64,000 nt of DNA, taken from the NCBI GenBank assembly GCA_030431255.1, contig JAUIJL010000006.1, positions 155,850-219,849 of the forward strand, in the 5' to 3' direction. Position numbers and translations under genes: made by a program. The first letter of the stretch is position 1; each line of letters starts with the position of its first letter. Below the pieces are notes generated by a model. It saw only the letters and a program-made list of their open reading frames with translations, was not told the DNA's origin and did no database searches. The stretch is from Thermoanaerobaculia bacterium. Lineage in GTDB: Bacteria; Acidobacteriota; Thermoanaerobaculia; Multivoradales; J023. Below are positions 2 through 25,153 of this stretch, piece by piece.

Positions 2-1192
2 GGCTGCCATTGGTGGGCTTGGTCGGCCCTTTCCGGCATGGAAATCCTATTGTTCTCGAATTTGGCGATTTGGGGTTTGATCCTTCACCAGCGGGAGGCC
101 GACGACGAGCACGCAGCCCCCATTTCCGTCGCCGTGCTGGCCGTCGCATGCTTGGCCCGGCCCGAGGGGCTGTTGCTGTGGGCTCTCGCCGTGGGTGAGC
201 GTATCTTGGACGAACGCGCCCGCTTGTCTCGAACGATGCCCGGACTAGCGGTGGGTCTGATGGTGCTGTCGTCGGTCTTGCTTTACAACATCTGGGTCGG
301 GGGCTCACCCCTGCCGACCACCTTCCATGCCAAGACCCACACCGACTGGGTGTTGGTGCCCAACGCCGGCTATCTGCGATCGGTGCTGAACGTGCTGTGG
401 GACGCCCAGCCGATCCTCAGTCTGTTGGCCCTAGCAGGCGGTATTCGCCTGGCGGCCCATGCCGATGTCCTACGCCCCCCGCGGCTGCTGCCGGTGCTGT
501 GGTTGATCGGCCAACCCCTGGCCTATTCGATCCTCACCTCTCCCCAAGGACCCCAGCCCCTGGGCAACTTCGGCCGCTACTATTTTCCCTTGGTGCCGGT
601 GGTGGTGGTGCTCGGGTTGGCGGCCCTGGAGCCGTTGCTCTCGGCCCCTGCCCTTGCGTTGCGCCGATGGCGATTAAGCTGGACGCCGTTGCTGACGATT
701 CTTCTTCTGACGCCCATGGCGTTTTCGGTCTGGAAAGGGCCTGGTCGATATCTGCAAACCGTGGCCAATGTGGAAGATTCGGACGTCCGGATGGCCCGAT
801 GGCTGCAACAACGGTTGCCCCCCGGCGCCCGCTTGGCGGCCCAAGATATCGGCGCGCTCAAATTCTTCCTACCCGACCATTACTTTGTCGATCTAGCGGG
901 CATCATCACCCCGGAAACCCGACGCATCCTTCACCGGTCCATGCAGGCGAGGTCGGGTGCAAACGGCGGCTCGGAACCTTATTGGGAGCTTCAGCTCGCC
1001 GACTACTTACAACGGTCTCAAGTGGACTACGTGGTGCTCTTCGAGGAGTCCTATCCCGCCTTGAGCCGGAGCCCCGATCTCGGCTTTGCCCGCATGCACC
1101 AGATAGCGATCGAGCGCAACGTCACCATGGCAGGAAAGACCTTGGTGGTGCTGAGGACCCCTTGGAGCCGCGGTCCTCTGCTTCAAGATTGA
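2..1192 (+). CDS. 3' part of a polytopic membrane protein gene (continues upstream of window); possibly the C-terminal/periplasmic part of a GT-C type glycosyltransferase
   Basis: Frame is open from pos 2 (first ATG at 38) to the stop at 1192. Several hydrophobic helices (LLWALAV.., VLWLIGQPLAYSIL.., LVPVVVVLGLAAL..) are followed by a charged soluble tail. No family-specific motif recognised. Confidence 0.45.
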   Translation, partial: GCHWWAWSALSGMEILLFSNLAIWGLILHQREADDEHAAPISVAVLAVACLARPEGLLLWALAVGERILDERARLSRTMPGLAVGLMVLSSVLLYNIWVGGSPLPTTFHAKTHTDWVLVPNAGYLRSVLNVLWDAQPILSLLALAGGIRLAAHADVLRPPRLLPVLWLIGQPLAYSILTSPQGPQPLGNFGRYYFPLVPVVVVLGLAALEPLLSAPALALRRWRLSWTPLLTILLLTPMAFSVWKGPGRYLQTVANVEDSDVRMARWLQQRLPPGARLAAQDIGALKFFLPDHYFVDLAGIITPETRRILHRSMQARSGANGGSEPYWELQLADYLQRSQVDYVVLFEESYPALSRSPDLGFARMHQIAIERNVTMAGKTLVVLRTPWSRGPLLQD

Positions 1193-1229: not shown

Positions 1230-3131
1230 TCAACCCCCGTCTTTTCCGAGAATTTTCTCGTCGTTGGCCGCCCAGAAGAGATCCGTCGCCCGGAGATGCG
1301 CCAATAAGGTCTGCTCGAGGCGCCGGACCTCGGCTTCGGGAACGGACGAAGCAAGGTTGTCGAGCTCAAGGGGGTCTTGGGAAAGGTCGAAAAGCTGGGT
1401 CGGGCGCAATCCGAAATGATAGACCACCTTTAGATCCCCCTCGCGCAAGCCGGCACAGGTTCGGCTGCCCCAACAGCTGCTCCACACGCGCTCGTGAGGA
1501 ACCGAGTCGAACAGATCCCTTCCCGGCAACGCTCCCTGCCAAGACACGGAAAGCAGGCTCAGGAGGGTAGGCATCAGATCGACGTGATGGCTCAGGCCCT
1601 CCATTCGACGGGCGGGTCCGACCCCGGGACCACGCATCAATAAGGGCACTCTCACCACTTCTTCGTAGGGCACCCAATTGTGCTGCATGCCCACGTGCTC
1701 GCCAAAGGCCTCGCCGTGATCACCGACGACAATAAGAAGTGTGTCCTCCTTTAGCCCCGCGCTCTCCAACCCATGCACGAGCTCGCCCAGGAATCGATCC
1801 TGCTGCCTCAGGGTTTCGCGGTAATAAGCGGGGAATCGGCTGGGGTCCCGATTGATCGGCAGTCCGGGCACGTCGTACGGGTGGTGGGCGGAGGATGTCA
1901 GCAGCGTGAGGAAGAAGGGACCCTCGCCACCTTGCCGGGCCCACTGCAACGCCGGCTCGACCATCGCCCGATCTTCCATCGAGAAATATCCGAGCTTCTG
2001 GAACGGCTCCCGGAACAAGGTCTCCTGAAAGGCCGCGGTCGAGAACCCCATATTTCGCACCAAGACCATGCGGTTCTCAAAGACCTCTTCAGCGCTTTGC
2101 ATGAACGCGGTTCGGTAACCGGCCGCCTCCAACATGGACGGCAGACATTCCAAGGGCCAAGGCCAGCCCGCTACGGCTTCCCGAATATCCAAAACGGATC
2201 GGGGAAAGGTTCCGCAAAGCAGGCCCACCAAAGCTTTCGACGTGTGGGTCACCGACGAGTAGACGGGGTCGAAAACCACCGATTCCCGGGCCAGCTCGGC
2301 CATGGCCGGCAGCTGGCTCCAAACCTGCGGATCAGAGTAGGGCGGCACCACCGCCGCTCCCGTAGATTCGAGGATGACCAACACCACATTGGGGCGAGCC
2401 TCGGCCGAGACCTGCGACTGGGCAGCTACTACCGAAGGTTTTGAATAGCCAGGGACTTGCTCGAGGATCGGCTGGGGGATCGTGGCATAAAGCCGGTCGA
2501 GGTCCGGTGCGGGTTTCACCAGCTCCACGGCCATCGCCCCGGCCAACCCGGCATCCTGCAAGCTATCCGGCATGGGCACGATCGACAGCAAGACTCCCAC
2601 CGCGAGGCAGGCCACGAGACATTTCGGGCCGACCCCTTCGGCACGACGCCTGAGCAGCCAAAAGAGCACCCATGCCATGAGCAGCACCGCGAACGCGACG
2701 GCCATCCGCCAATAGAAAACCGGTCCGATCACCCGCTGAATAATTAACCGCAGCTCTTCGAAATTGAACACGCCGTATTTCACCGTCCGAAAATGCATCC
2801 GCATACCGGTGTGCTCCACATAGCAATGCTCGGCGACACTCAGCGCGTAATAGCCGGCGGAGACACCCACAAATAGAGGCCACCACAGCTTGCCGACCAA
2901 GCCAGGAACCGCCGCCAACAGCATGAGCAGCGCCGCCCCCAGACACCAAACCGCCAGCTCGGGCACAAATCCCATGAGGATTTCGAAGCCCCCGAAGGTC
3001 GGCATCATCAGGGTCTTTTCGAGGCGGAAAAGCAATCCGGGCAAAAGCCAAAAACCGCCGACGACACAAACCGCCATGGCACGGAGGCGCCATGCCGGAG
3101 TCTGGAACAGGAACATCGGGCTCGAGCTCAT
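1230..3131 (-). CDS. LtaS/phosphoglycerol-transferase-like membrane-anchored alkaline-phosphatase-superfamily ('sulfatase-like') enzyme
   Basis: N-terminal multi-TM region, then an extracytoplasmic domain with NVVLVILESTG...HTSKALVGLLCG and DHGEAFGEHVGMQHNW, typical of LtaS/MdoB/EptA-type metal-dependent transferases. ORF track starts at 3215; probable ATG start at 3131 (MSSSPMFLF...). Confidence 0.7.
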   Translation of the reverse strand: MSSSPMFLFQTPAWRLRAMAVCVVGGFWLLPGLLFRLEKTLMMPTFGGFEILMGFVPELAVWCLGAALLMLLAAVPGLVGKLWWPLFVGVSAGYYALSVAEHCYVEHTGMRMHFRTVKYGVFNFEELRLIIQRVIGPVFYWRMAVAFAVLLMAWVLFWLLRRRAEGVGPKCLVACLAVGVLLSIVPMPDSLQDAGLAGAMAVELVKPAPDLDRLYATIPQPILEQVPGYSKPSVVAAQSQVSAEARPNVVLVILESTGAAVVPPYSDPQVWSQLPAMAELARESVVFDPVYSSVTHTSKALVGLLCGTFPRSVLDIREAVAGWPWPLECLPSMLEAAGYRTAFMQSAEEVFENRMVLVRNMGFSTAAFQETLFREPFQKLGYFSMEDRAMVEPALQWARQGGEGPFFLTLLTSSAHHPYDVPGLPINRDPSRFPAYYRETLRQQDRFLGELVHGLESAGLKEDTLLIVVGDHGEAFGEHVGMQHNWVPYEEVVRVPLLMRGPGVGPARRMEGLSHHVDLMPTLLSLLSVSWQGALPGRDLFDSVPHERVWSSCWGSRTCAGLREGDLKVVYHFGLRPTQLFDLSQDPLELDNLASSVPEAEVRRLEQTLLAHLRATDLFWAANDEKILGKDGG

Positions 3132-3387
3132 GGCGGCAGTCTCGCAGAATCGGAAACTGCGGGAAACCCCTCCGATTCGACAGCCGACCGGCCACCGAGT
3201 CGGAGATTGCCTCACCGATGCGCCGGTGCTAAAGTGCCGCCGATTAGCCTGCTCTGCTGATTTCGTGTATTTGTCGATTCTAGTCTGGAACTCTTACCGA
3301 AGACCCATACATGCCCCATTGGCCCAGCTCCGCGGACGGTTGCCGACAGCGGCGTCATCCCGCTGAAGTCGGCCGACGAAGCCCGCA

Positions 3388-4605
3388 ATGAACGATCTGA
3401 GCGCCAATCCAGCACAGGGCGACGCCGTCGAGGCGTCCGTCGACACTGCCGCTTCGGCCCCTTCCCAAGAGCCGACTTCGCAAAGGCCGACTTCCCAAGA
3501 GCCGACTTCGCAAAGGCCGACCTGGCCGGAACGGATCAGCTCTTGGTTGAGCAAGCTCCATCCGGAAGAAAAATACGTCATCGCTTTGTCCCTCGTGGGC
3601 ATTCTGGTTTGCCACTTCTTTGGCAAGGGATTCAGCTTTTTCGTCGCCTACGAATATCTGATGATCTTTGCCCGGCACCTGGGGCTGTACTACATGGTCT
3701 CTCGGGTGTTCCTCTTCGTGGGAGAAAATTGGCGACCCACCGGGGCGGCCGGGATCTATTTCCGCCGTTTCTTCTTCGGCCCGATCCGCCCCCGCCACAG
3801 CTATTACGAGGCGGACATCGCGTTCCTCCGGGGTTTCTTCCTGATGTTCGGCGCACTGAGCGTTTACACGAACCTCAAAATTCGTATCCCGTTCATCAAC
3901 GCCTACACGGGCGACGAATTCTTCAAGCAGGTCGACTCCTGGCTCTTCGGCGATCAGCTCTGGCCTTGGCTGACCCAGGTGGTCCGATCTGACCCGGAAT
4001 GGACCAACTTCTTCCAGAATCTCTACTCCCACGACTATATGTACATGGTGATTCTGGTCATGCTGTTCCACATGCGGCGCGATATTTTCGCGATGCGCTG
4101 GTGTTTTGCCTCGGTCGGCGTGCTTTACATCGGCACAATTTTCGTCACCCTCGCCTATCCGTCCCTCGGCCCGTGCTTTTACGCCTGGGAGGAATGGCAA
4201 TGGCTGGCGGACTTGGATCCGCCTCAGATCCACCAAACTCAGTGGAGCCTGGCCCAAACCTTGATTAGCCTGGTGGGCATGGCCGATGTCCAGCCGCGTA
4301 TCGAGGCCCACGCTTTCTACGGCATCGCCGCCTTCCCGAGCCTGCACTGCGGCCACATGATGCTGCTCGTGGTTATCGCTTGGTATCGCTATCGTCTTTA
4401 CACCCTGGTGGCGGCCTCCATGACCTTCCTGACATTCATCGCCACCATGGCCTTCGGTTGGCATTGGGCCGTGGACGGCGTTGCCGGCGCCGCGATTGCG
4501 GTAGTGGTGCCGATCTTCTTGCTGAAGGTCATGCAGAAAGAAGAGGGCGAGGCGTCTTCTTCGCCGGTTTCGGACGCACCCACCGCCGTGGCCGATGCCC
4601 GATGA
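3388..4605 (+). CDS. PAP2_C-type (Aur1/sphingomyelin-synthase-like) lipid phosphotransferase/phosphatase family membrane protein
   Basis: Polytopic membrane protein. C-terminal motifs FPSLHCGH (PSxH-like) and HWAVDGVAGAAI (H-x3-D-V-x2-G) fit the PAP2/PAP2_C C2/C3 motifs. N-terminus carries a perfect 10-aa tandem repeat SQEPTSQRPT x2. Confidence 0.5.
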   Translation: MNDLSANPAQGDAVEASVDTAASAPSQEPTSQRPTSQEPTSQRPTWPERISSWLSKLHPEEKYVIALSLVGILVCHFFGKGFSFFVAYEYLMIFARHLGLYYMVSRVFLFVGENWRPTGAAGIYFRRFFFGPIRPRHSYYEADIAFLRGFFLMFGALSVYTNLKIRIPFINAYTGDEFFKQVDSWLFGDQLWPWLTQVVRSDPEWTNFFQNLYSHDYMYMVILVMLFHMRRDIFAMRWCFASVGVLYIGTIFVTLAYPSLGPCFYAWEEWQWLADLDPPQIHQTQWSLAQTLISLVGMADVQPRIEAHAFYGIAAFPSLHCGHMMLLVVIAWYRYRLYTLVAASMTFLTFIATMAFGWHWAVDGVAGAAIAVVVPIFLLKVMQKEEGEASSSPVSDAPTAVADAR

Positions 4606-6370
4606 TCAAAAGCCGGACGAGCTGGAGCCGGACAAGCTGACACAGGACGAGCTGGAGCCGCATCGTCCCAGGCTCGTCGGCCTCGTACGCGGGCCGCTCA
4701 TCCCCGGGCTGCTCGTTCTCGGGATCCTCGGCTTCGGCTTTGCCAACCTTCACCACTACAACATCACCTGGGACGATGCGCTGGGCGACCTCTTCTACGG
4801 CCAGCGCTATCTGAGCTTTTTCCTGAGCTGGGATCCTGTCTATCTGGACTTTGACGGCGACCCTTATCCGCCGGATCACACTCCCGACCTGAGCGCTTCA
4901 CCGTTTCGAGGACGCCCTTGGGAGTACTATCCGGTGGCCAATACCTTGGCGGCGGCCACCTCGGCCGTGCTCTCGGGCGCCTTGGGATGGATGGACCCAT
5001 TCGACGGATTTCACGCGCTCAATCTCTTCCTTGCCGCGAGCCTGGCGTGGGTTCTGTTCACATTTCTCGAGCGCCGATTCGACGGGGTTGTAGCCCTTGC
5101 GGCCGTGGTGTTTCTATTCGGCTCCCCGCGAATAGTGGCCCACATGATGGCCAACATCAAAGACTTTCCCCTGATGGTGCTGTTCAGCCTAGGAGCCCTG
5201 GCCTTCTATCGGGCCTTCGAGAGCGGATCGGCCCGTGGGCTGTGGCTTTTCGGCGGGCTGCTCGGCTTGGCCCTCGGCACCAAAGCAAATGCCCTCTTCT
5301 TGCCCTTAATCCCTGCCCTGACCCTCTTGCTCGGGGGGGTGCCCGAGGCTTGGCGGGGGAGAGAGGCGCGCCTTTTCTCCACCTTGATCGGCGCCGGCGC
5401 TCTCGGCGTGGTGGTGATGGTCGTCACGTGGCCCTATCTTTGGGGCGATCCTATCGGGGGCTTCTCAGAGCATCTGAAATTCGTGCTCTCCCGAAAGGAG
5501 TCCACCTCCCAGGGCAGTGTGGCGCCGGCTTACGAAGCGATCCTCTACACCACGCCGCCGTTGTTCCTCGTCGCTTTTGCATTGGGCGCCGTGCTTTCCG
5601 TCGGATCCTTGCGCCGAGGGCATCGCCCGCTGCTTTTCCTGTGGGTGTGGATCGCCGCGGTGCTCGGTCGGTACCTGCTGCCCCAGGCGATCAACTACGA
5701 TGGCGTCCGCCATTTCCTGGAGCTCTTTCCGCCCATGGCCGCGATTGGGGCCTACGGGCTCGCTACGGTCGCCGGCCGAGTGGCCACGCCACGGGACCCG
5801 CAGATTCGCTCCCAACATCATCGAGCTCTTTTCGTTAAGCTGGCCTTAGTGCTCCTATTCACCCTGCCCGGGGCCGTGCAAGTCTTCAAGACCCATCCCT
5901 TCCAATTGGCCTATTGGAGCTCATTGGCCGGGGGCTACCCGGGGGCCCGGGCATCGGACCAGCCCCAGGCTTCGGATTATTGGGGTTTGAGCTATCGGCT
6001 CGGCATGCGATGGCTGAACGAAAACGCGGAGCGCGACGCTCTCCTAGCCGTGCCGGTGGTCGAGCATGCCGTGCGACTGGTGGCACCGCAGCGCTTGCGG
6101 TCGGACATCCAGCTGCTGCCGATCACCACGCCGTTTTCGCCCCACATCCAACCGGAGCGGCTACGGCGCACCCTCGAGCTATCTCTGGAACGACCCCTCT
6201 ACGTGATGTTCGTAGAGCGCAGGGATTGGATGAACCCCCTGATGGTGGATTGCTTGCGGCGACTAAAACCCGTCAAGGAATGGCGGCTGGAAGGCGATCC
6301 GATCCTGCAGATCTACCGCTATCAGCCCCCTCGCCGGGGCGAGCGTCTCAGGCAAAGCGGTCAGCCGTAG
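4595..6370 (+). CDS. GT-C fold membrane glycosyltransferase (ArnT/PMT-like, GT39/GT83-type; polyprenyl-phosphate-sugar dependent)
   Basis: About 11 predicted TM helices with an N-terminal extracytoplasmic loop carrying acidic residues (ITWDDALGD). Overall ArnT/PMT_2-like architecture (…GTKANALFLPLIPALTLLLGG…). ATG at 4595 overlaps the upstream stop by 11 nt. Confidence 0.6.
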   Translation: MPDDQKPDELEPDKLTQDELEPHRPRLVGLVRGPLIPGLLVLGILGFGFANLHHYNITWDDALGDLFYGQRYLSFFLSWDPVYLDFDGDPYPPDHTPDLSASPFRGRPWEYYPVANTLAAATSAVLSGALGWMDPFDGFHALNLFLAASLAWVLFTFLERRFDGVVALAAVVFLFGSPRIVAHMMANIKDFPLMVLFSLGALAFYRAFESGSARGLWLFGGLLGLALGTKANALFLPLIPALTLLLGGVPEAWRGREARLFSTLIGAGALGVVVMVVTWPYLWGDPIGGFSEHLKFVLSRKESTSQGSVAPAYEAILYTTPPLFLVAFALGAVLSVGSLRRGHRPLLFLWVWIAAVLGRYLLPQAINYDGVRHFLELFPPMAAIGAYGLATVAGRVATPRDPQIRSQHHRALFVKLALVLLFTLPGAVQVFKTHPFQLAYWSSLAGGYPGARASDQPQASDYWGLSYRLGMRWLNENAERDALLAVPVVEHAVRLVAPQRLRSDIQLLPITTPFSPHIQPERLRRTLELSLERPLYVMFVERRDWMNPLMVDCLRRLKPVKEWRLEGDPILQIYRYQPPRRGERLRQSGQP

Positions 6371-7230
6371 ACGATCCACAGCACGAGCACTCCCCAAAGC
6401 ACGACGTTGACCACGAACGGCACGTCGCTGAGCAAGGCTTCCGTGGGATTGCGCTCTTCGGGTTGTTGGTAGATCAGGTAGAGATAGCGAAAGATGCCGA
6501 AGAGCACCAAGGGGATGGTGTAGATCAGGTTGTCGGTCCCGAAGCGCTCGATGGTGCCCTGGTCCACGCAGTAGAGGGCGTAAGACACCACGGTCGACGC
6601 GGTCACCACATTGATCATCTGATCGAGAAAGGCTGGGCTGTAGTGGCTCAACACCGAGCGATGGCTGGCGGCATCACCGGCCAACAGCACCAGCTCGTGG
6701 CGGCGTTTCGAAAAGATCAAGAAGAGGGCCAAGAAGATGCTGCACAGGAGGAGCCACTTGGACACTTCCACGTCGATCGCCGCGCCACCGGCCATCACCC
6801 GCAGAACATAACCGCTCGACACCGCCATCACGTCGAGGATGACCTTGCGCTTCAGCCAGCTCGAATAGAGCAAGTTGATGACGATATAGACCGCGAGAAT
6901 CGCCAAGAAGACCAGATTCAGGCTGAAGGAGATGGCCATGGCCAACAAGCCGAGCACCACCGCGGCCCCGGTCGCGACCGGCACCGGCAACGCTCCGGAA
7001 GCAATGGGGCGATTTTTTTTGAGGGGATGGAGGCGGTCGTCCTCCCGATCTCGCAGGTCATTGACCAAATAAATGCAGCTGGCAGCAAAGCAGAAGGCAA
7101 TGAAGGCCAAAGCCACCTTGATCAACAGGTCAGGGTCCGCCAATTGCTCGGCAAAAACAATCGGGGCCAACACAAAGACATTCTTGACCCATTGAATGGG
7201 CCGCATCGCTTTCATCAACGGCAAGATCAT
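6361..7230 (-). CDS. UbiA-family decaprenyl-phosphate phosphoribosyltransferase-like (DPPR synthase, Rv3806c-like)
   Basis: MILPLMKAMRPIQWVKNVFVLAPIVFA...CIYLVNDLRDREDDRLHPLKKNRPIASGAL is near-colinear with the mycobacterial Rv3806c Asp-rich NDxxDxxxD region. About 9 TM helices. ORF track starts at 7392; the likely start is ATG 7228-7230 (MILPLMK). Confidence 0.8.
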   Translation of the reverse strand: MILPLMKAMRPIQWVKNVFVLAPIVFAEQLADPDLLIKVALAFIAFCFAASCIYLVNDLRDREDDRLHPLKKNRPIASGALPVPVATGAAVVLGLLAMAISFSLNLVFLAILAVYIVINLLYSSWLKRKVILDVMAVSSGYVLRVMAGGAAIDVEVSKWLLLCSIFLALFLIFSKRRHELVLLAGDAASHRSVLSHYSPAFLDQMINVVTASTVVSYALYCVDQGTIERFGTDNLIYTIPLVLFGIFRYLYLIYQQPEERNPTEALLSDVPFVVNVVLWGVLVLWIVYG

Positions 7231-7241
7231 GGGCGTATTAT

Positions 7242-9818
7242 ATGGATCCGATGTCCGTTTCGCCCGACGATCACGCCCAAAAGTCAACCCGGGGCCAGAA
7301 TTTGCGAGCTCGAGCCGCGTCGATCTTGAAGAGCCGATTTGCCCGTTTCTACATGGCCCCGACCTTGTTGGTGATGGCCATGGCCGTTGCACCGCTGGTC
7401 AGCGGCTCGGGAACCCTCTACCACCGTGACGTCCTGGTGAGCCACTACCCGCTGAAAGCGGCGCACGCGCAGGTCATGGCCGACGGCCATTTCATGCCGT
7501 TGATCGACCCCTACCGATCCGGTGGCCAGCCTCTGATGGGCAATCCCAACGCTTTGCCCTTCTATCCCACCAACTTGCTCTATCGAATCGCCGAGCCCCT
7601 TTGGGCCCTCAACGCCCATTTTTGGCTGCATCTCTTGGCGGCGCCCCTGGCTTTGTTTTGGCTCGCCAGGGTTTGGGGGCTGTCTCGACCCGCCGCCTGG
7701 GCAGCGGCATCGACCTACGCCGTCAGTGGCTACGTCCTATCGCTGATGAATCTCTACAACCTGGTGGCGGCCGCGGTTTGGGTGCCCGCCTTTGCCGCGG
7801 CCTGCCTGCGTGCCGGACAAGATCGTCGGGCCGGGCCGTCCGTGGCTATCACCCTCACTTGGACCCTGCTGATCCTCGGGGGTGACCCCATGACCGCCTT
7901 GCTGGGAGGGGTCCTCGGGCTCAGCACCTGGCTTCTGCGCCGACCCGTCCAGGCGCGGGCGGCCACGGTTTCGCTGGTCGTCTCGGTGACCCTGGGCACC
8001 TTGATCGCGGCTCCCATGTGGATCGAGTTTCTCCGCATCTTGCCCTTGTCCTATCGGGGCTATTGGCGTTACTCCGTGGCCACCAGCTTGGCCCAAAGCT
8101 GGAATCCCTGGACCGTGCTCGATTGGATCGTGCCTTTCTTCTTCGGCAATTTGGATTACAACTTTTGGGGCTACTCCTTCTTCGGCGGCAACCCCCCGCT
8201 GCTTTACTCCCTCTTTCCCGGCGTATTGGCGATCGCCCTCGTGCTCGCCGCCGGCCTGCCGGGCCGGTCGAAGGTGATCGTCGAGAGCGCTGCCGATGGA
8301 TCGGGCCCGGGGGAGGCGGAGCAAGAAGAGGAAGCCCCGGGGAAGACCTCGGGGAAGGCCTCGGACGAATCTCCTTCCGAGACCCACTCCACAAAACGGC
8401 TCCAGATTTGGTGTTGGGCCTGGATCGGAGCCGGGGCCTTTGTGGCCGCGGGTTTCTACAACCCGGTGATGCACTGGCTCTACCAGCTACCGGGAGCTTC
8501 GGCCCTCCGCTATCCGGTGAAAGTTTGGATTCTGGTCGCGATCACGGCATCTTTGCTCGCCGGAGTCGGTTTCGAGCGATTTCTGGCCGGGGATCGACGC
8601 CTGAGCCGAATTTTGGGGTTTGCGACCTTGGGCTATGGCCTGCTTTGGGTAGCCCTGATCATTCTTCCGCCTCCCCTGGCCAAGGCCCTCCAAAGCCTCA
8701 ACCCCGAAGTGCTGGCCACCGGGCTCTTCGCGCATCAACGGCTGCAATGGGCGACCACTACGTTCTTTGTGCTCATCGGCTGTCTCGTCCTCTGGTTGAC
8801 GGCTCGCCAAGCCGATCGGCGATCCGCCTTTCACGTCGGCGCGGTGCTTTTGGTGTTACACACCGCCCTCCAGAGCTTCCTCCTCAATCCGCTGATCGCC
8901 ACCGACGAGTCGTCTCATTACACCGGGCTGCCCGAGGTCGCTCGCAGCCTACCGCCCGGATCACGGGTGGCCCACGGCACCTTCAGCGAGATCTTCGGCC
9001 CACGGGACAAGTCGATCTTCCCCAAGCTCCCCGGCACGGAATTTTTCTGGCTGACCCGTGAGGAATTCGCCTCTTTCGCCCATTTTTCGGCGGTTCCCCA
9101 CGGATACCGATTCGAGCTCAATCAAAGCCCGGAAGGTCTCGACTCGTTCTTCAGCCTCGCTCTGGGCAAAGCTTTCAAGAACCTGGACGATCTCTCGCGG
9201 GTTCGCCTGCTGGCCGCGGCGGGAACGGAGCATCTGCTGTTGCCGCGACCGCTGGACGCTTCGGCCGAAGCCCAAGCCACCCTCGTAACCCGGACCCCCG
9301 GCAGCGCATTCGACACCTGGCACTACGCCCTCGAGCGGGTCTTGCCGGAGCACCAGGTGGTGGGGAAGGTCCGCCGGGCGGACGACATGAATCAGGCCCT
9401 GAGCTTGCTGGCGGATCCCGACCTCGACCCCCGCGTCACCGCCGTGCTGCCCGCTCCGGGCCCAGAGCTCGACGGCCCGGGAGGGACCGCCGAGCTGGTC
9501 TCCGAGTCCCTGGAACGCATGGAAGTGACGGTCAGCTCGCCGAGCGGAGGGCTTTTGACCACCCGCCGCGCGTGGCTGCCTATCTACCGAGCCTGGGTCG
9601 ACGGCGAGCCGGCCACCGTGGAGAAGGTCAACATCTACAAGCTCGGTGTCCTCGTGCCGGCCGGAGAGCATTCCGTGGTGATCGCCACGGATCGCCGTCC
9701 CACCCTCGCGGCCGCCGCCACGTCGTTCACGGCACTGGCTTTCGTGCTCTTCTCGGCAGGCCACCGGCGACGCAAGACCCGCCCCGAGTTGGAAACCGAA
9801 GGGCCTGCTGCCCGATGA
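7242..9818 (+). CDS. YfhO-family GT-C membrane glycosyltransferase
   Basis: 858-aa polytopic membrane protein. N-terminal ...SGSGTLYHRDVLVSHYPLK...DPYRSGGQPLMGNPNALPFYPTNLLY matches the conserved YfhO N-terminal region (B. subtilis SHYYPFK...NPY...FYPLNLL); length also matches. Start uncertain (ATG 7242, or 7353 MAPTLLV). Confidence 0.7.
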   Translation: MDPMSVSPDDHAQKSTRGQNLRARAASILKSRFARFYMAPTLLVMAMAVAPLVSGSGTLYHRDVLVSHYPLKAAHAQVMADGHFMPLIDPYRSGGQPLMGNPNALPFYPTNLLYRIAEPLWALNAHFWLHLLAAPLALFWLARVWGLSRPAAWAAASTYAVSGYVLSLMNLYNLVAAAVWVPAFAAACLRAGQDRRAGPSVAITLTWTLLILGGDPMTALLGGVLGLSTWLLRRPVQARAATVSLVVSVTLGTLIAAPMWIEFLRILPLSYRGYWRYSVATSLAQSWNPWTVLDWIVPFFFGNLDYNFWGYSFFGGNPPLLYSLFPGVLAIALVLAAGLPGRSKVIVESAADGSGPGEAEQEEEAPGKTSGKASDESPSETHSTKRLQIWCWAWIGAGAFVAAGFYNPVMHWLYQLPGASALRYPVKVWILVAITASLLAGVGFERFLAGDRRLSRILGFATLGYGLLWVALIILPPPLAKALQSLNPEVLATGLFAHQRLQWATTTFFVLIGCLVLWLTARQADRRSAFHVGAVLLVLHTALQSFLLNPLIATDESSHYTGLPEVARSLPPGSRVAHGTFSEIFGPRDKSIFPKLPGTEFFWLTREEFASFAHFSAVPHGYRFELNQSPEGLDSFFSLALGKAFKNLDDLSRVRLLAAAGTEHLLLPRPLDASAEAQATLVTRTPGSAFDTWHYALERVLPEHQVVGKVRRADDMNQALSLLADPDLDPRVTAVLPAPGPELDGPGGTAELVSESLERMEVTVSSPSGGLLTTRRAWLPIYRAWVDGEPATVEKVNIYKLGVLVPAGEHSVVIATDRRPTLAAAATSFTALAFVLFSAGHRRRKTRPELETEGPAAR

Positions 9819-12118
9819 CCCCAACCCGGCTGCCCAGATCGGCCTACGCGTGGGCAGTGGGCTTTGTGTCTCTGGCGGTCCATGGGCTGTTGTCCCTGTG
9901 GTTCCCGGCCCCTCTTTTCGAAAAATACACGGTGGCAGCGGAGCTCTTTCTCGACGGCCGAATGGCGTCGGAGCGATGGCTGGATTTCAGCCCCCTCTAC
10001 CTCCATCTGGCCATGTTCCTGCGTCGACTCACGGAGGACGTGGAGTCGGTGCTGCTGATCCTGCAGCTGGGCTTGCTAGCAGCCACCTCGGCCCTGTTCT
10101 TTCTCTGGGCGGAGCGGCGGCTCGGTATTCGCTGGGCGCTGCTCGGGGCGGCGGTGATCACCCTCGATCGGCATGTGCTGATCTATTCCAGGATTCTCGA
10201 GCCGGAAGCGATCTTCCTCTTTCTGTTGATGCTCTTCCTCTATTGGGTGGACGGTCCAGAAGGGGAGCCGACGCGCCCTTTCGCCGCGGGTATCGTCGGG
10301 GCTTTGGGCATCGCCACCCGGCCGACCTTTCTACCGATTTGCTTGTGGGTGCTCGTGCTCTGGGGCTGGCATCGACGCGAGCAGCTGCGCCCGTGGGCGC
10401 GGCCGGCGGTCTATTTCTTGGCCGCCCCAGCCCTGATGCTGATGCTGCTCGCCGTTCGCGCGCAGGTCGTGGCCGGATCCTGGCGCGCGCCGACCATGAA
10501 TCCGGGCACCGTGCTCTACGAAGGCAATCAGCCCATGTCTCGGGGTACCAGCGCGGTCTACCCCCCTCTCGTGCATCAGCTTTCGAGCGGACAGGACTCC
10601 ACGCCGGATCCGGCCCACGTTTACTACCGAGAGATCGCCCGCCGGGAAGTCGGCTCCGGCGTGTCGGGAGACTTTGGAGACGGCGACCGAGGTGGCCGGC
10701 TTCTGGGGGTTCGCGACGTCAACCGGCTGTGGACACGGCGGGCCCTGGATTTCACCCTCGACCACCCGGGATTCGCCCTTCGCCGGCTCCAAACCAAGCT
10801 GCTCTACGCCTTCCACAATTTCCGCTGGCATGATCTTCCCGCGGCCTGGCTCTACGATCGAGCCTTGCCCCTTTCCGGGGTGCCGTTCGCCCTGCTCTCC
10901 GCCCTGGCGCTGCCCGGTCTGCTGCTGGAGATTCGCGGCCGACGGAACAGCCTCTTGCTCTACGGATTGTTGGGATCTCAGCTCTTGGTGATGCTGGTCT
11001 TCTACGTCTCACCACGCCAGCGCCTGATGTGGATCCCATTGCTGATCTACTTCAGCCTCGTCACCCTTCGCGATACGGTCCGTCAGCGCACCCTCTGGCC
11101 AGCCTTGCTGGCCCTGGTGCTGGTGCCCGCGTTCACCTTGCCGGACGACGCCATGCGGGACGAGATCTACCAGCGGAATCAGATGGAGCTGGCTCGGCCC
11201 ATCCTCCAGGAGATCTCAGGTCGAATCGCGGACGGTGAGCCCATAAGCGCCATGGCCGACGGCTTCGCCCAAGCTCTCGCCCACGCTCCTTGGTGGCTCG
11301 AGGGCCTTCAACCGGCTTTTCTCGATCGCTCGGGGCAAAGTCTAGAGCGGGCCATCGCGTCCAAGCTCGATCCCAGCCGGCTGTCGCTCTTCGATCAGGC
11401 CGAGATGTGGATGCGAGCGGGCGACGTAGAGCGGGCCCGAGCGCTCTTGCTCCAATGCCTAGAAACGGGAGAGCAGCTCTATCGAAAGGGTCGCCTCAAC
11501 ACCTCACCGGAGCTGCTCTTGGCGAGATTGGACCTGCTCGATGGGCGAAGGCAGGACGCCGAGGTCCGGCTCCGACGAGGGCTGAGAGCCCATCCCGGAG
11601 ATGCCTTTCTACTGGCAGAGCTGGTCGCCTTGGAATCGACCACCCACGCCGCAGGGGTTGGATCTCCCCTCTTCGACAGCCTGGAGACCTACTACGGCCG
11701 GCAAAGCGCACATTTTCTGGTGGGTCGAGCCTTGTTGGCCCAAGACGAGCCCGCCGCCGCCATCCGACATCTGGAGATCACCGTCCACGCTTTTCCTCAG
11801 CTGCGGGAGGCCCGGTTGGCCTTGGCGGCAGCGTTTTTTCGGACGAGCCGGCTCGATGACGCGCTGAAGCAGGTCCTGGTCGCGGATCGCATCCGGGCCG
11901 AGCCGGCGCTCTATGCGGACGATATGGCCGAGATCTACGGAGCTGCGGCCCAACAATCTTCTGCTCCCGATCAGGTGTTGCGGGCCGCCCAGGGTCTCTT
12001 CCACTACGGCCGGCCCCACCGCGCCTTGAGGGTGCTCGACCGACCTTGGCCCCCGGCCGAGCAGAAAAAAGTGGCCGCGCTTCAGCGGCGTCTACGTTCG
12101 GCGATCTCAAAACCCTAA
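9815..12118 (+). CDS. GT-C-like polytopic membrane protein with C-terminal TPR domain (PMT/DUF2723-like putative glycosyltransferase)
   Basis: ATG at 9815 overlaps the upstream stop (ATGA). N-terminal ~480 aa have about 11 TM helices. C-terminal ~250 aa carry TPR-like helical repeats (…AIRHLEITVHAFPQLREARLALAAAFFRTSRLDDALKQVL…). Confidence 0.55.
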   Translation: MTPTRLPRSAYAWAVGFVSLAVHGLLSLWFPAPLFEKYTVAAELFLDGRMASERWLDFSPLYLHLAMFLRRLTEDVESVLLILQLGLLAATSALFFLWAERRLGIRWALLGAAVITLDRHVLIYSRILEPEAIFLFLLMLFLYWVDGPEGEPTRPFAAGIVGALGIATRPTFLPICLWVLVLWGWHRREQLRPWARPAVYFLAAPALMLMLLAVRAQVVAGSWRAPTMNPGTVLYEGNQPMSRGTSAVYPPLVHQLSSGQDSTPDPAHVYYREIARREVGSGVSGDFGDGDRGGRLLGVRDVNRLWTRRALDFTLDHPGFALRRLQTKLLYAFHNFRWHDLPAAWLYDRALPLSGVPFALLSALALPGLLLEIRGRRNSLLLYGLLGSQLLVMLVFYVSPRQRLMWIPLLIYFSLVTLRDTVRQRTLWPALLALVLVPAFTLPDDAMRDEIYQRNQMELARPILQEISGRIADGEPISAMADGFAQALAHAPWWLEGLQPAFLDRSGQSLERAIASKLDPSRLSLFDQAEMWMRAGDVERARALLLQCLETGEQLYRKGRLNTSPELLLARLDLLDGRRQDAEVRLRRGLRAHPGDAFLLAELVALESTTHAAGVGSPLFDSLETYYGRQSAHFLVGRALLAQDEPAAAIRHLEITVHAFPQLREARLALAAAFFRTSRLDDALKQVLVADRIRAEPALYADDMAEIYGAAAQQSSAPDQVLRAAQGLFHYGRPHRALRVLDRPWPPAEQKKVAALQRRLRSAISKP

Positions 12119-12199
12119 ACACACCGTCACCACAGCGGCGCCTGAGACGGATGCCCAGGTGCCTGTGGTCAAGGCGACGGAATACGATAGGCTCGCGCC

Positions 12200-13978
12200 A
12201 TGATTGGCAACCTTTCGCAGACCGATCGAGCACTTCGATTCGTCGGCGCCTTTGTTTTAGCTCTCATGATCGGCCTTGGGATCTGGACTTTGTTCCAGAT
12301 TTCCGCCAACCGGGCCTATCAGGTCGATGAGGTGGAGCACCTGCACGCCGCCTACAATCTGCACATCGGCAAGCTGCCTTATTACGACTTCTATCAGGTC
12401 CATCCACCGCTCCTGCACTTCATGCTGTATCCGTTCACGGATCCGGACGACCCCGAAGCCAGCTATATTCGAGGCCGCCATCTTTCTTTGGTGGTGCTGT
12501 TGATCTCCCTGGCGCTTTGCGCGGGATGCGCAGCTCGCCTCTCCAATCCCCTCGGGGGTCTGATCGCCTTGGGTCTTGCGCTTTCCCATACGACTCTCAT
12601 GGAACGGGGAATGGAGATCCGACCCGACAACTCGGTGAATCTCCTGGCTTTTCTGGCCCTCTATCTGGAGCTGAGGGCCGACAAACCCTCGATCAAGCGT
12701 TATATGTTGCAGGGATTCCTGCTCGGCCTCGGTTTGCTGCTTGCCCAAAAGACCGCCTTTCCCAGCTTCGCCTTCGGTTGCTTGTGGCTGTTCACCGCGA
12801 TTCGGATTCGCAACCTTTGGTGGGCCATTCTGCCGGTTTGCGTGTGGGCCGTTCCCGCCTTGCTCGGAGCAGCGTGGCTGCTGTCGAACGGCATCCTTCA
12901 CGAAGCTTTCGTCTCCATTTTCGGCGGCGCCTACGACGCGGCTTCCGGGGCTGAGCACCGAGATACCTTCAGCCCTTGGGGTTACATCAAGAGCGAATCC
13001 GAGCGCAACGTGCCTTTTGTGATCTTCGGCGTCTTGGGCACCCTGCGGGGTTTGCTCGATCTCCTGGCACCCTCCAAATGGCTGAGCAAGCAACGTGCTC
13101 CTTTCCCCATTCAGGCCGGCCGACCGTTCGCCTTCCCAGCGTTCTTTACTTTGATCACGATCGCTTCTTTGTGGCTGAACCCGTTCCCGTGGCCGTACGT
13201 GCACCCGGCTCCGGCTCTGGCCCTGGCGATGATGGCCGGCGCCCTCATCGGGGGCATGTTGGTGCAGCGGCTCAAGTCTCCCTTTTCGTATACGGCCTTA
13301 TTCGGAGCCGCGCTAGTCATCGCCATGGCCGCCATGGTCAGCGCGCCGCGCCTGATCGAGAAATCCCAGCATCGGGGCGATCCCAACAGCACGGGATTCC
13401 AAATGTTCGTGCTCAAGGAGCTGACCCGCATTACCGAGCCCGACGACGCGGTCTTCGATTTGGTGGGCTTCTATTTCCGACCTGACGCCTATCCCGCCTA
13501 CAGCCTGAGCAAGGATTTGGTGGGTTGGTACAAAGACGGCGCCTATCCGCGCATGATCCCGACCCTGCGCCAAAACGAGACGGTGGCGTTCATCCACACC
13601 TATCGCAAGAAATGGCTGCCCGACGAAGAGCTCGACTTCCTGAAACACCGCTTCATTCGTTATTTCGGCAATATTTTCATTCTCGGCACCGACGTCTCCA
13701 ATTGCGAGCCGGACAAGGAGTATTTCTTCGAGGTGCTGAAAACCAAACCCTTCGTCTACGAGGGACCGGGCGAAATGACCGTCAACGGCCGGCCGTTCAC
13801 CCGCGGCGTCCTCGGCAAGGGGCATCACGTCATCACCGTCAAAGACAACCAGGGCCAGGGGCGGTTGATCATGGACACGCCTGCCCCCAAACCGCCTTTC
13901 CCGCAGGACAAGATTCCCGGGCCGGGCAATATGTTCCGAGCGCAGGTGGACGAAGAAAAATATTGGGTCTTCGACTGA
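12200..13978 (+). CDS. GT-C fold membrane glycosyltransferase, ArnT/PMT-like
   Basis: N-terminal TM then loop with YQVDEVEHLHAAYNL (acidic D/E motif of GT-C first loop). Multiple TM helices, C-terminal soluble domain. Confidence 0.6.
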   Translation: MIGNLSQTDRALRFVGAFVLALMIGLGIWTLFQISANRAYQVDEVEHLHAAYNLHIGKLPYYDFYQVHPPLLHFMLYPFTDPDDPEASYIRGRHLSLVVLLISLALCAGCAARLSNPLGGLIALGLALSHTTLMERGMEIRPDNSVNLLAFLALYLELRADKPSIKRYMLQGFLLGLGLLLAQKTAFPSFAFGCLWLFTAIRIRNLWWAILPVCVWAVPALLGAAWLLSNGILHEAFVSIFGGAYDAASGAEHRDTFSPWGYIKSESERNVPFVIFGVLGTLRGLLDLLAPSKWLSKQRAPFPIQAGRPFAFPAFFTLITIASLWLNPFPWPYVHPAPALALAMMAGALIGGMLVQRLKSPFSYTALFGAALVIAMAAMVSAPRLIEKSQHRGDPNSTGFQMFVLKELTRITEPDDAVFDLVGFYFRPDAYPAYSLSKDLVGWYKDGAYPRMIPTLRQNETVAFIHTYRKKWLPDEELDFLKHRFIRYFGNIFILGTDVSNCEPDKEYFFEVLKTKPFVYEGPGEMTVNGRPFTRGVLGKGHHVITVKDNQGQGRLIMDTPAPKPPFPQDKIPGPGNMFRAQVDEEKYWVFD

Positions 13979-14046: not shown

Positions 14047-15216
14047 ATGGCCAGCTCACCTTCCGAGCCGACATCCGACGACAGCCCGATGATCTCCGTG
14101 GTCATCCCGTGTTTGAACGAGGTCCAAAGTGTCGGCAAATGCGTCCAAAAAGCCTTGGCGGGCATCGAGCGCTCCGGGCTCACCGGCGAGGTGGTGGTCA
14201 GCGACAACGACTCCGAGGACGGCTCGGCGGATGCGGCCCGGGCCGCCGGCGCGCGGGTGGTGCACGAGCCGCGACGGGGTTACGGCTCCGCCTATTTGCG
14301 CGGCTTCGAGGCGGCTCGCGGAAAATATTTCGTCATGGGCGATGCCGACGAGACCTACGATTTCGAAGATATCCCACGGTTTATCGAGCCCTTGCACGAA
14401 AAGGGCTTCGACATGGTCATGGGCACCCGGCTCAAGGGAGAGATCCTGCCCGGTGCCATGCCGTGGTCCCACCGTTGGATCGGCAACCCGATCCTCTCGG
14501 GCATGTTGAAGCTGCTCTTCCGCACTAAGATCTCCGACTCCCACTGCGGTATGCGCTCCTTCACCCGCGACGCCTACGAGCGCATGGGGCTGCGGACCAC
14601 GGGCATGGAATTCGCGTCGGAGATCGTGGTCAACGCCTTGCGCAACCAGCTCAAGATCGACGAGATCCCGATCACTTACTATCCGCGGGAAGGGGAGTCC
14701 AAGCTCCAAGGCTTCCGCGACGCTTGGCGCCACGTGCGTTTCATGTTGCTCTTTTCACCGTCCTACCTCTTCCAACTGCCGGGTTTCCTCTTGTCGCTTT
14801 TCGGCCTGCTGTCGATCGGCCTGCTGGCCGCCGGGCCCCGGGAGCTGCTGGGACGCACCTGGGATTTCCACGTGCTGCTCTTCGGCTGCTTGTCGTTGAT
14901 TCTCGGCTACAACCTGGTGATTTTCGACATCCTGGCCAAGCGCTTTTCCGTGGCCGCGGGTTTCGTCAAACCCAACGAATACCTTTCGGGGTTGGTGAGA
15001 TTCTTCACCTTGGAGAAGGGCCTCGTGCTCGGCGTGCTGGTCTTGATCGCCGGTCTCGGCCTGGAGCTCAAAATCGTCTACGACTGGGCCCAAGGTGGCT
15101 TCGGCCAGCTGATGGCGGTACGCGGGGTCGCCCTGGGCATGACCGCCATGGTGCTCGGCGCCCAAACCGTCTTCGCGTCGTTCCTATTCAGCTTGACGTT
15201 GATCCAGAGGCGCTGA
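14047..15216 (+). CDS. GT2 polyprenyl-phosphate sugar synthase (ArnC/CsbB/GtrB/DPM1-like) with C-terminal TM helices
   Basis: ISVVIPCLNE...VVVSDNDSEDGSA...GDADETYDF...MPWSHRWIGNPILS is the classic GT-A DxD fold of the Dpm1/ArnC family, followed by 2-4 C-terminal TM helices. The ORF-track long N-terminus is rejected; start at ATG 14047 (MASSPSEP). Confidence 0.8.
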   Translation: MASSPSEPTSDDSPMISVVIPCLNEVQSVGKCVQKALAGIERSGLTGEVVVSDNDSEDGSADAARAAGARVVHEPRRGYGSAYLRGFEAARGKYFVMGDADETYDFEDIPRFIEPLHEKGFDMVMGTRLKGEILPGAMPWSHRWIGNPILSGMLKLLFRTKISDSHCGMRSFTRDAYERMGLRTTGMEFASEIVVNALRNQLKIDEIPITYYPREGESKLQGFRDAWRHVRFMLLFSPSYLFQLPGFLLSLFGLLSIGLLAAGPRELLGRTWDFHVLLFGCLSLILGYNLVIFDILAKRFSVAAGFVKPNEYLSGLVRFFTLEKGLVLGVLVLIAGLGLELKIVYDWAQGGFGQLMAVRGVALGMTAMVLGAQTVFASFLFSLTLIQRR

Positions 15217-15930: not shown

Positions 15931-16040
15931 GGAGTCGCCGTGGGCATCGTATTGCGGCCGATGCTCCGTTTTCTGTTCTTGTGCCGATGTTTCCTGTGCG
16001 GTCACGCTGGATCCTTCCCATATCGCCCTGGACAACCGGA

Positions 16041-21534: not shown

Positions 21535-21556
21535 GCGGGATCTCCGTCGTTTCGGC

Positions 21557-25005: not shown

Positions 25006-25153
25006 GGGGTGAGGTCGACCTCCTTAAATAAAAACGGATGTGTTTCCGAGGCCGTCGGATCTTACCAGCCAAGTCGATGGTCGACAGCCCAGTGATCGTC
25101 GACAGCCCAGTGATCGTCGACACCGTTCGTGCGGAGCGGTTACCATCGATCCC

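Follow-up and report, generated by a model that had tools for sequence, protein, structure and literature searches.

The 64-kb stretch of Thermoanaerobaculia bacterium contig JAUIJL010000006.1 analysed here (hereafter the window) encodes, at 6361..7230 on the minus strand, a 289-aa polyprenyl-phosphate 5-phosphoribosyltransferase (PPPRS) of the Rv3806c/DPPRS family with a UbiA fold. The gene is flanked on both sides by genes for GT-C glycosyltransferases: a PMT_2/ArnT-like GT-C of 591 aa (4595..6370, plus strand) and an unannotated GT-C of 855 aa, here called M858 (7251..9818, plus strand), which was recognized from its predicted fold and its synteny. The M858 operon also encodes a 767-aa polytopic membrane protein with a C-terminal TPR domain (9815..12118, plus strand), and a PAP2-superfamily gene lies on the other side of the PMT_2 GT-C gene (3388..4605, plus strand). 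We consider it probable that the PPPRS and the GT-Cs together carry out pentofuranosylation in the periplasm, as a module of an extensive locus for envelope glycans. Genes were mapped from lists of open reading frames (ORFs) and third-position GC content, and the Pfam scan covered ~45 window ORFs chosen as real genes by third-position GC content.

Identity of the phosphoribosyltransferase

The ORF at 6361-7392 on the minus strand has its true start at the ATG at position 7230, which gives a 289-aa product in agreement with homologues and public gene calls. Besides matching Pfam UbiA (2.6e-24), the product scores 314.5 bits on NCBIfam NF008977 'decaprenyl-phosphate phosphoribosyltransferase', whose cut-off is 234, and 262.7 bits on NF008978, whose cut-off is 207; no true prenyltransferase model in NCBIfam exceeds 45.7 bits. 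It aligns with Rv3806c in the cryo-EM structure PDB 8j8j with E=2.4e-42 over residues 3-244, and the window segment YLVNDLRDREDDRLHPLKKNRPIASGAL and its Rv3806c counterpart YLVNDVRDVEADREHPTKRFRPIAAGVV align without a gap, bearing out the likeness to the mycobacterial enzyme over this segment that a preliminary description of the DNA had pointed out.

The residues contacting phosphoribosyl pyrophosphate (PRPP) and decaprenyl phosphate were defined by Gao et al. 2024 (PMC10994848), who also noted that true UbiA enzymes do not share the phosphoribose-binding residues. Eleven of 13 substrate-contacting residues are kept in the window protein (R22, K28, Y70, N73, D77, K87, R90, Y138, K143, Y157 and K191 in Rv3806c numbering). 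The Mg2+/PRPP-binding N73 and D77 of the NDxxD motif correspond to window N57 and D61 and are invariant in 85 of 85 relatives; the phosphate and ribose contacts K28, Y70 and Y157 are conserved as K16, Y54 and Y141; the pyrophosphate cluster R22, K87, R90, K143 and Y138 is present in full as R10, K71, R74, K127 and Y122; and the polyprenyl-phosphate contact K191 is present as K175. All 85 family members have K28, Y70, K87 and K191, which correspond in E. coli UbiA to Gly, Cys, Thr and a gap, and at the columns of K28, Y70, Y157 and Q135 the E. coli enzyme carries G, C, W and A. Q135 is replaced conservatively by N119 (Asn in 52 and Gln in 22 of the 85 relatives), and K208 by S192 at a position that varies across the family.

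A neighbour-joining tree from the 87-sequence alignment, which is descriptive and carries no bootstrap support, groups the window PPPRS with Rv3806c, far from E. coli UbiA. The product is not a quinone or chlorophyll prenyltransferase, the alternative named in the preliminary description. The E. coli UbiA sequence used was verified at 372 bits on TIGR01474. NF008977 is the model best matched by the window PPPRS, by the PPPRS of locus L084 described below and by one member linked to a DUF362 gene; Rv3806c best fits the actinobacterial NF008976. More than 7,400 PPPRS homologues were found, a separate species-level scan yielded relatives in many phyla, and homologues already bear the name decaprenyl-phosphate phosphoribosyltransferase in the NCBI pipeline. 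The identification of the 6361-7230 product as a member of the polyprenyl-phosphate 5-phosphoribosyltransferase family is solid.

GT-C partners of the PPPRS

Gene neighbourhoods were read within +/-10 kb of the PPPRS gene in 86 loci (L numbers below), 80 of them from one species-level genome scan spanning many phyla. M858 homologues occur in 24 of these (~22 distinct), nearly always head-to-head with the PPPRS gene at gaps of 12-180 bp, and the pairing, found in Thermoanaerobaculia/Holophagae-type loci, reaches down to 58% PPPRS identity. The M858-linked PPPRS sequences form one clade in the neighbour-joining tree. M858 is the conserved partner of the PPPRS in this lineage, and it is this most conserved partner, the 855-aa GT-C at 7251-9818, that had been overlooked earlier. 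Gene order in L001, a relative with 94% identity, is that of the window; in more distant Acidobacteriota loci (68-74% identity), a homologue of M858 is retained along with the PMT_2 GT-C and the TPR protein. The ATG codons of the PPPRS (7230, minus strand) and M858 (7242 or 7251, plus strand) lie 11-20 bp apart, so either the transcripts overlap or each of the divergent promoters must be situated within the coding region of the opposite gene.

A word-indexed search retrieved 406 M858 homologues, all 'hypothetical' and none with a Pfam domain; the named ones are all labelled Acidobacteriota, Thermoanaerobaculia, Holophagales or just 'bacterium'. A profile search opens onto a larger superfamily, with 47,304 representatives at E<=1e-3 and 4,132 at E<=1e-30. 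PDB sequence searches with the PAP2_3, PMT_2, M858 and TPR proteins gave no match at E<=1, and structure prediction and fold search were used for this reason. In the AlphaFold2 model of M858, built with a 42-sequence alignment (pLDDT 91.7, pTM 0.91), a polytopic helical domain at the N-terminus is followed by an extracytoplasmic C-terminal domain rich in beta structure (about 550-815) and by a last transmembrane helix. AftD (E=6.7e-7) and ArnT (1.3e-6) rank at the top of the Foldseek search, and AftA is also among the best matches. The invariant pair R59-D60 lies in the first extracytoplasmic loop, at the usual position of the GT-C catalytic acid. The model shows a GT-C fold, as predicted for a polyprenyl-phosphate-sugar-dependent transferase; the fold alone does not specify the sugar. 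Membership of M858 in the YfhO family was suggested by eye and is not claimed here, the only support being sub-threshold matches in two remote relatives.

The 591-aa GT-C (PF13231 2e-07; 31.8 bits, cut-off 26.1) is encoded convergently with the PPPRS. As noted in the preliminary description, its gene sits between the PAP2 and UbiA genes and overlaps both, the former by 11 nt and the 3′ end of the latter by 10 nt. Homologues are present in 8 of the 86 loci; the gene adjoins the PPPRS gene in L001, L004, L006, L007 and L008 and lies ~6 kb off in L005. The 767-aa protein, with ~8 N-terminal hydrophobic segments and TPR_14/16/19 matches at residues ~600-790 of the longer ORF, has homologues in 9 of the 86 loci, is syntenic in 6 distinct related loci and is matched by tblastn in L001-L008; the L006 homologue has a weak PMT_2 match. 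BLASTP detects no paralogy between the GT-C-like proteins of the window.

The PAP2_3 protein and its sulfatase-family neighbour

The 405-aa product of 3388..4605 is an Aur1/IPC (inositol phosphorylceramide) synthase-like membrane enzyme of the PAP2_3 type (PF14378 1.1e-19, PF01569 5.6e-08). An earlier assignment of a PAP2_C-type protein two genes from the UbiA gene thus stands as to superfamily and position and has to be amended as to type. The search for homologues yielded only 12, of which one bears the name inositolphosphotransferase; the invariant residues are K164, D176, D183, S259/G261/P262, PSLH320 and GWH359xxxD363. The full signature of PAP2 phosphatases reads KX6RP / PSGH / SRX5HX3D. 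PAP2_3 keeps the catalytic His of motif C2 (PSLH320) and the His and Asp of C3 (H359xxxD363); of C1, K164 alone is left (KIRIPFIN, without RP at +7/+8), and C3 is without SR (ATMAFGWH). The AlphaFold2 model (pLDDT 86) has an IPC synthase (9vj4) and Aur1 (9ivc) as its closest Foldseek matches, followed by A. aeolicus LpxE (6ebu), SMSr and PgpB; all structural matches are PAP2 enzymes, and LpxE, the third-best, ranks first by target-normalised TM-score (0.70). From the distribution of basic residues over the predicted loops, the catalytic residues would lie on the periplasmic side.

Even with a family HMM, PAP2_3 was detected near the PPPRS gene in only two lineages among the ~24 related loci, that of the window and L001, and L010; its position is held in L004-L008 by unrelated membrane proteins of 620-644 aa. 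L010 (10001-14978, Thermoanaerobaculia MAG (metagenome-assembled genome) CAWAET010000003), the sole locus beyond the window lineage in which PAP2_3 abuts the PPPRS gene, carries on one strand the PPPRS, PAP2_3 (about 10960-11958), a Dpm-like GT2 and a transmembrane sulfatase.

The divergent neighbour of PAP2_3 in the window, 173 bp away, is a membrane-anchored sulfatase-family enzyme of LtaS/EptA/OpgB-like architecture (1230..3215, minus strand; PF00884 3.9e-42 at residues 275-556, after N-terminal transmembrane segments), with weak NCBIfam matches to LtaS (62 bits), YejM and EptA (17 bits), all far under cut-off. Homologues of this enzyme stand beside PAP2_3 homologues in L093 (36% identity, 4e-89), L092 and L010, where the sulfatase-family gene is two genes from PAP2_3 (2e-21). 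Seen from the PAP2_3 homologues, P0248 directly follows a sulfatase-family gene whose product is 36% identical to that of 1230-3215 (4e-89), P0249 adjoins another (1e-24), and P0250 has neither a sulfatase-family nor a PPPRS gene nearby; a PPPRS gene was found within 8 kb of none of the three. Counted over five independent contexts, PAP2_3 is paired with an LtaS/EptA-like enzyme in four and with a PPPRS in two. PAP2_3 therefore probably acts together with its LtaS/EptA-like neighbour on the phosphates or phospho-headgroups of an envelope lipid or glycan, much as in the LpxE-EptA pair described below; for the pentose pathway it would be at best an opportunistic 5-phosphatase.

The surrounding envelope-glycan locus

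From position 1 to ~29.4 kb the window is tightly packed with envelope-glycan genes; the largest intergenic gap on the gene map of this region is 173 bp, leaving no room for a hidden small gene. At its left edge the window cuts into the gene of a ~520-aa membrane protein; the C-terminal 396 aa, encoded by 2..1192 (plus strand), weakly match LA_3751-type putative glycosyltransferases (NF047440, 4e-4, far under cut-off); homologues lie near the PPPRS gene in 12 loci, and the full-length protein in L001 has 520 aa. To the right of the TPR protein gene, 12200..13978 (plus strand) encodes a 592-aa polytopic protein that may be a further GT-C, with transmembrane segments and a weak PMT_2 match (PF13231 4.4e-4, under cut-off); L001 alone among the fetched loci has a homologue. 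Next comes a 389-aa GT2 resembling polyprenyl-phosphate hexose synthases, with a C-terminal transmembrane region (14047..15216, plus strand; PF00535 1.4e-26). It matches the AglJ, Dol-P-hexose transferase, PpgS and ArnC NCBIfam models, all under cut-off, and the public gene call carries PF26629 GT2_TM_C; judged by these matches, it may provide a second lipid-linked donor route in the same operon.

On the minus strand follow a methyltransferase gene overlapping the 3′ end of this GT2 gene (about 15184-16005), a further GT2 (16041-16868), an LPG_synthase_TM/'flippase-like domain' protein (16868..17950; PF03706 1e-24, TIGR00374 43.0 bits against a cut-off of 43.2) and a 569-aa protein with no function assigned (17947-19656). 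Rightward to 29.4 kb, on mixed strands, lie three more sulfatase-family proteins, a FAD protein of PRK07208 type and a GH39-like protein (27356-29419). With the 1230-3215 gene, PF00884 sulfatase-family genes number four within 27 kb (the others at 19675-21738, 21557-23431 and 25040-27196), and long N-terminal membrane regions, as in the LtaS/EptA/OpgB architecture, are present in at least two of the four products. This suggests extensive transfer of phospho-substituents onto an extracytoplasmic glycan.

An IS200/Y1-transposase-like gene (29897-30877, plus strand), just past the GH39-like gene, forms the right border of the glycan locus. The remainder of the window contains housekeeping genes and markers of a diderm cell, namely a MacB-type ABC transporter, QueD/E, aconitase, type II secretion/type IV pilus genes, KdtA, LpxK and GT9; the last three, at 55-59 kb, are lipopolysaccharide genes of this diderm acidobacterial host. 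The closest relatives of several locus genes come from MAGs labelled Acidobacteriota, Thermoanaerobaculia or Holophagales. Outside the glycan locus, an ORF of more than 1362 aa (59903-63991, minus strand) runs past the right edge at 72-73% GC and a third-position GC of 0.91, where the rest of the window has ~61% GC. It carries Calx-beta and lactonase/beta-propeller repeats, and its abrupt change in composition points to a surface protein rich in repeats or to foreign DNA.

Epimerases and the nature of the sugar

As stated in the preliminary description, the window shows no DprE1/DprE2 pair: tblastn of the 64 kb with M. tuberculosis queries, which were verified against PDB chains, gave nothing below E=0.08, and PF01565 had no match among the scanned ORFs. 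Within +/-10 kb of the PPPRS gene, DprE1/DprE2 are found in none of the ~24 M858-type loci and in one of the 86 loci overall. This one is L084 (10001-13272, Terriglobia MAG JBEKMN010000026), where the PPPRS gene (50% identity; NF008977 298 bits) is followed by DprE1 (40% identity to the M. tuberculosis protein, E=6e-98) and then DprE2 (35% identity), in what is by sequence an apparently complete DPA-type arabinofuranose (Araf) donor pathway in an acidobacterium. Because L084, a member of the NF008977 subfamily, directly precedes DprE1 and DprE2, this subfamily can be said to operate in lipid-linked pentose pathways.

Two window genes were considered, one as a DprE2 candidate and the other as a DprE1 substitute. 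The SDR at 40725-41480 is rejected as DprE2: it has no tblastn match to that protein, is YdfG-like and lies 33 kb off among unrelated neighbours. The 525-aa FAD/NAD-binding protein at 23428-25005 (minus strand), which belongs to the PRK07208 'hypothetical' family (NF005546, 851 bits) and is encoded amid sulfatase-family genes, is not linked to a PPPRS in any other locus (0 matches); it bears a faint similarity to UDP-galactopyranose mutase, and a furanose-related role is conceivable. Since no epimerase lies near the PPPRS, either here or in the related Thermoanaerobaculia-type loci, the transferred sugar would most simply be ribofuranose (Ribf).

The sister clade of the M858-linked PPPRS spans many phyla (Bacteroidota, Ignavibacteria, Chlorobi, Aminicenantes, Desulfobacterota, Planctomycetota, WOR-3 and others) and includes the DprE-linked L084; Rv3806c falls outside both clades. 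A DUF362 (PF04015) gene stands beside the PPPRS gene in 24 of the ~60 sister-clade loci (L026-L085), mostly 11-106 bp downstream on the same strand, as in L061 (PPPRS 10001-10855, DUF362 10930-12225, plus strand). No other PPPRS neighbour is as common in other phyla, but the window has no such gene. DUF362 has no PDB relative by sequence; it belongs to the same Pfam clan as the N-domain of the LarA racemase/epimerase (PMC11770544), which makes it a candidate for the missing epimerase or processing enzyme of polyprenyl-phosphate-ribose.

Proposed pathway and alternatives

At the cytoplasmic side of the inner membrane, the PPPRS would take ribofuranose-5-phosphate from PRPP and load it onto a polyprenyl phosphate, which is presumably undecaprenyl phosphate. 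A phosphatase for which there is no confident candidate would then remove the 5-phosphate, and the lipid-linked pentofuranose would be flipped to the periplasm, with the 16868-17950 protein as candidate flippase. There GT-Cs would take it as donor, M858 being the first candidate and the TPR-bearing GT-C (9815-12118) and the PMT_2 GT-C (4595-6370) further probable users, and transfer it to a periplasmic or envelope acceptor. The module would thus belong to a ~29-kb locus for the assembly and decoration of an extracytoplasmic envelope glycan, which also encodes the GT2 polyprenyl-phosphate hexose synthase, more GT-C-like proteins, four sulfatase-family enzymes and a methyltransferase. That a lipid-linked pentofuranose is used by the neighbouring GT-Cs is well supported as pathway logic by conserved synteny and fold. 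We infer, rather than read from the sequence, the sugar, the flippase, the acceptor, the role of PAP2_3 and, since a GT2 polyprenyl-phosphate hexose synthase also lies in the locus, the donor used by each particular GT-C.

Several observations weigh against such a module. Two canonical pathway steps, 5-dephosphorylation and flipping, have no recognizable enzyme in the locus: a 5-phosphatase of either known kind (HAD PRP domain or Rv3807c-type PAP2) was not found there, MATE and GtrA-type flippase families are unmatched among the scanned ORFs, and the 16868-17950 'flippase-like' protein is the only flippase candidate. Any of the GT-Cs could take the product of the GT2 polyprenyl-phosphate hexose synthase as donor instead. 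In the PPPRS itself, the ribose O3 contact Q135 is changed to Asn and K208 to Ser, and catalysis across the PPPRS clade is predicted from sequence. Finally, only 64 kb is visible, and DprE1/DprE2 or another epimerase could lie elsewhere.

As an alternative, the 6361-7230 product might be an ordinary aromatic or polyprenyl prenyltransferase of quinone, haem O, chlorophyll or ether-lipid synthesis, lying by chance in a glycan locus. The Pfam label indeed reads merely 'UbiA prenyltransferase family', and some JGI records call close homologues 4-hydroxybenzoate polyprenyltransferase; however, all NCBIfam models of such enzymes score <=46 bits, far under cut-off, where two phosphoribosyltransferase models pass, E. 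coli UbiA reaches just 42.5 bits on NF008977, and the residues binding phosphoribose and its 5′-phosphate, reported absent from true UbiA (Gao et al.), are invariant here, so that the chance of this explanation is close to negligible. A different question is whether, as had been proposed, the locus encodes a DPR/DPA pathway of the mycobacterial kind, with the PAP2 protein (3388-4605) taking the part of Rv3807c and removing the 5-phosphate from polyprenyl-phospho-5-phosphoribose. The catalytic H320, H359 and D363 are present and invariant; the gene lies two genes from the PPPRS gene in the window and L001, and immediately 3′ of it on the same strand in L010, an independent Thermoanaerobaculia MAG; the pathway requires a phosphatase and no other candidate is visible; and the Rv3807c homologue of P. 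aeruginosa is likewise clustered, yet dispensable (10.1101/2020.04.19.049825). Against this, PAP2_3 occurs in just two lineages among ~24 M858-type loci even with the family HMM and is replaced in L004-L008 by the unrelated 620-644-aa membrane proteins; of three homologues viewed from their own side, two adjoin a sulfatase-family gene and none has a PPPRS gene within 8 kb; its nearest structures are IPC synthases, which are phosphotransferases; the arginine and proline of KX6RP and the SR of C3 are missing; and by positive-inside reasoning its active site would be periplasmic, whereas polyprenyl-phospho-5-phosphoribose is made on the cytoplasmic face. We therefore regard this version of the pathway as unlikely, and it is similarly doubtful that PAP2_3 is the polyprenyl-phospho-ribose-5-phosphate phosphatase. 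The proposal of a lipid-linked pentose donor pathway outside Actinobacteria retains its basis in a PPPRS among GT-Cs and probably loses the PAP2 protein as its dedicated phosphatase.

The M. tuberculosis dprE1 and dprE2 genes are not adjacent to Rv3806c, and a full DPA-type Araf pathway could likewise have its DprE1/DprE2 homologues elsewhere in this genome, with the GT-Cs acting as arabinofuranosyltransferases. Such a pathway would agree with L084, a Terriglobia NF008977 member with DprE1 and DprE2 immediately downstream, and with the domain plan that the TPR-bearing GT-C shares with the arabinosyltransferase TfpW. The fold matches of M858, however, are generic to GT-C enzymes, DprE1/DprE2 were not found in the 64 kb or near the PPPRS gene of any M858-type locus, with the single L084 among all 86, and in the Gram-negative systems surveyed by Kelly et al. 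(PMC11127046) the epimerase genes lie inside the modification cluster; an Araf pathway thus seems unlikely for the window. It is quite improbable, though conceivable, that PPPRS and M858 are a two-gene core peculiar to the Thermoanaerobaculia/Holophagae-type lineage which, together with 3-4 further GT-C-like enzymes of the locus, builds a ribofuranose- or pentofuranose-based envelope polymer or lipoglycan, with non-canonical 5-dephosphorylation and flipping or even transfer of undephosphorylated Ribf-5-phosphate. If true, this would be a Gram-negative analogue of mycobacterial arabinan, not a single side-chain decoration.

A pentofuranosylation module as preferred here would have consequences beyond the window. 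Acidobacteriota are abundant in the environment and their envelope glycans almost uncharacterized; from the locus, members of the Thermoanaerobaculia/Holophagae lineage are predicted to synthesize a pentofuranose on a lipid carrier and to use it for extracytoplasmic attachment of the sugar. M858 represents a large unannotated GT-C family with no Pfam model, is likely a pentofuranosyltransferase and, if verified, could be a candidate for a new CAZy family. The analysis also corrects a tempting but weak annotation transfer, from Rv3807c to the PAP2 gene. PPPRS partners differ by lineage (M858, DUF362 or DprE1/DprE2), a pattern that can guide the search for missing pathway steps.

Comparison with known systems

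In H. pylori, the PAP2 lipid A 1-phosphatase LpxE stands beside the sulfatase-family phosphoethanolamine transferase EptA. The PAP2-superfamily enzyme of the window is likewise found beside a membrane-anchored sulfatase-family enzyme, but it is nearer to IPC synthases, and its neighbour scores higher on LtaS than on EptA (62 against 17 bits).

The D-Araf genes of P. aeruginosa include homologues of Rv3806c, Rv3807c, DprE1 and DprE2, and TfpW is a pilin arabinosyltransferase, a GT-C with a C-terminal periplasmic TPR domain (bioRxiv 10.1101/2020.04.19.049825). This pilin system (PA7/Pa5196; PsPA7_6245-6249 and TfpW) resembles the window in combining a PPPRS homologue with a TPR GT-C, TfpW (646 aa) and the 9815-12118 protein (767 aa) being likened by domain plan; DprE1/DprE2 and a GtrA-like gene adjoin the PPPRS gene in Pseudomonas and are absent from the window. 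Pilin arabinosylation is also called to mind by linkage to a pilin gene, which for the window comes from the synteny of L001 and L004 only: L001:19256-20699 and L004:17881-19348 carry genes for a type IV pilin-like protein of 174-182 aa with an N_methyl motif and for a prepilin peptidase (A24), ~8-9 kb from the PPPRS gene, in a region syntenic with that just left of window position 1. Unlike in Pseudomonas, the pilin gene is several genes from the PPPRS gene in L001 and L004, and the linkage is lost in L005 and L006.

With the M. tuberculosis DPA pathway (Rv3806c, Rv3807c, DprE1/DprE2, Rv3789 and Emb/Aft), the window shares a homologous first enzyme with conserved contact residues, the clustering of its gene with several GT-C genes and a nearby PAP2-superfamily gene, and, for M858, structural matches to AftD and AftA. 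It differs in that its PPPRS belongs to NF008977 and Rv3806c to NF008976; that DprE1/DprE2 and a counterpart of the GtrA-like Rv3789 are missing; that its PAP2 protein is an Aur1-like PAP2_3 without consistent linkage; that its GT-Cs do not resemble the Emb or Aft families in sequence; and that the host is a diderm with lipopolysaccharide genes.

In the systems of Kelly et al. 2024 (PMC11127046), O antigens receive alpha-Ribf in the periplasm through the joint action of a PPPRS with a fused HAD phosphatase, a flippase of the MATE type and a GT136 GT-C, and DprE1/DprE2 or another epimerase, where present, turn the donor into Araf or xylofuranose (Xylf). In that survey systems of PPPRS, flippase and GT-C are widespread, with epimerases as optional add-ons; together with the more than 7,400 homologues and the relatives in many phyla, this makes the earlier view that D-Araf/Ribf systems are rare outside Corynebacterineae outdated. 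In Citrobacter youngae O1/O2 (ORF15 PPPRS-PRP, ORF14 MATE flippase, ORF12 GT136), a PPPRS of the Rv3806c family supplies polyprenyl-phosphate-Ribf to a periplasmic GT-C, and the window PPPRS, of the same family, lies by GT-C genes; epimerases are optional there, their absence implying Ribf, and none was found in the window; and both the Citrobacter GT-C and M858 have a beta-rich C-terminal (periplasmic/extracytoplasmic) domain. Unlike the Citrobacter enzyme, the window PPPRS is not fused to a HAD PRP domain, its match to NF006088 covering the UbiA part only. Citrobacter has a MATE gene and one GT-C, whereas the window has no MATE gene and 3-5 GT-C-like genes, and the Citrobacter acceptor is an O antigen, whereas the window is without an O-antigen ABC or Wzy context. 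The locus fits the known PPPRS and GT-C kind; without a recognizable phosphatase domain or a MATE/GtrA flippase, it is set apart by its several GT-C-like genes and by a conserved GT-C from an unannotated family.

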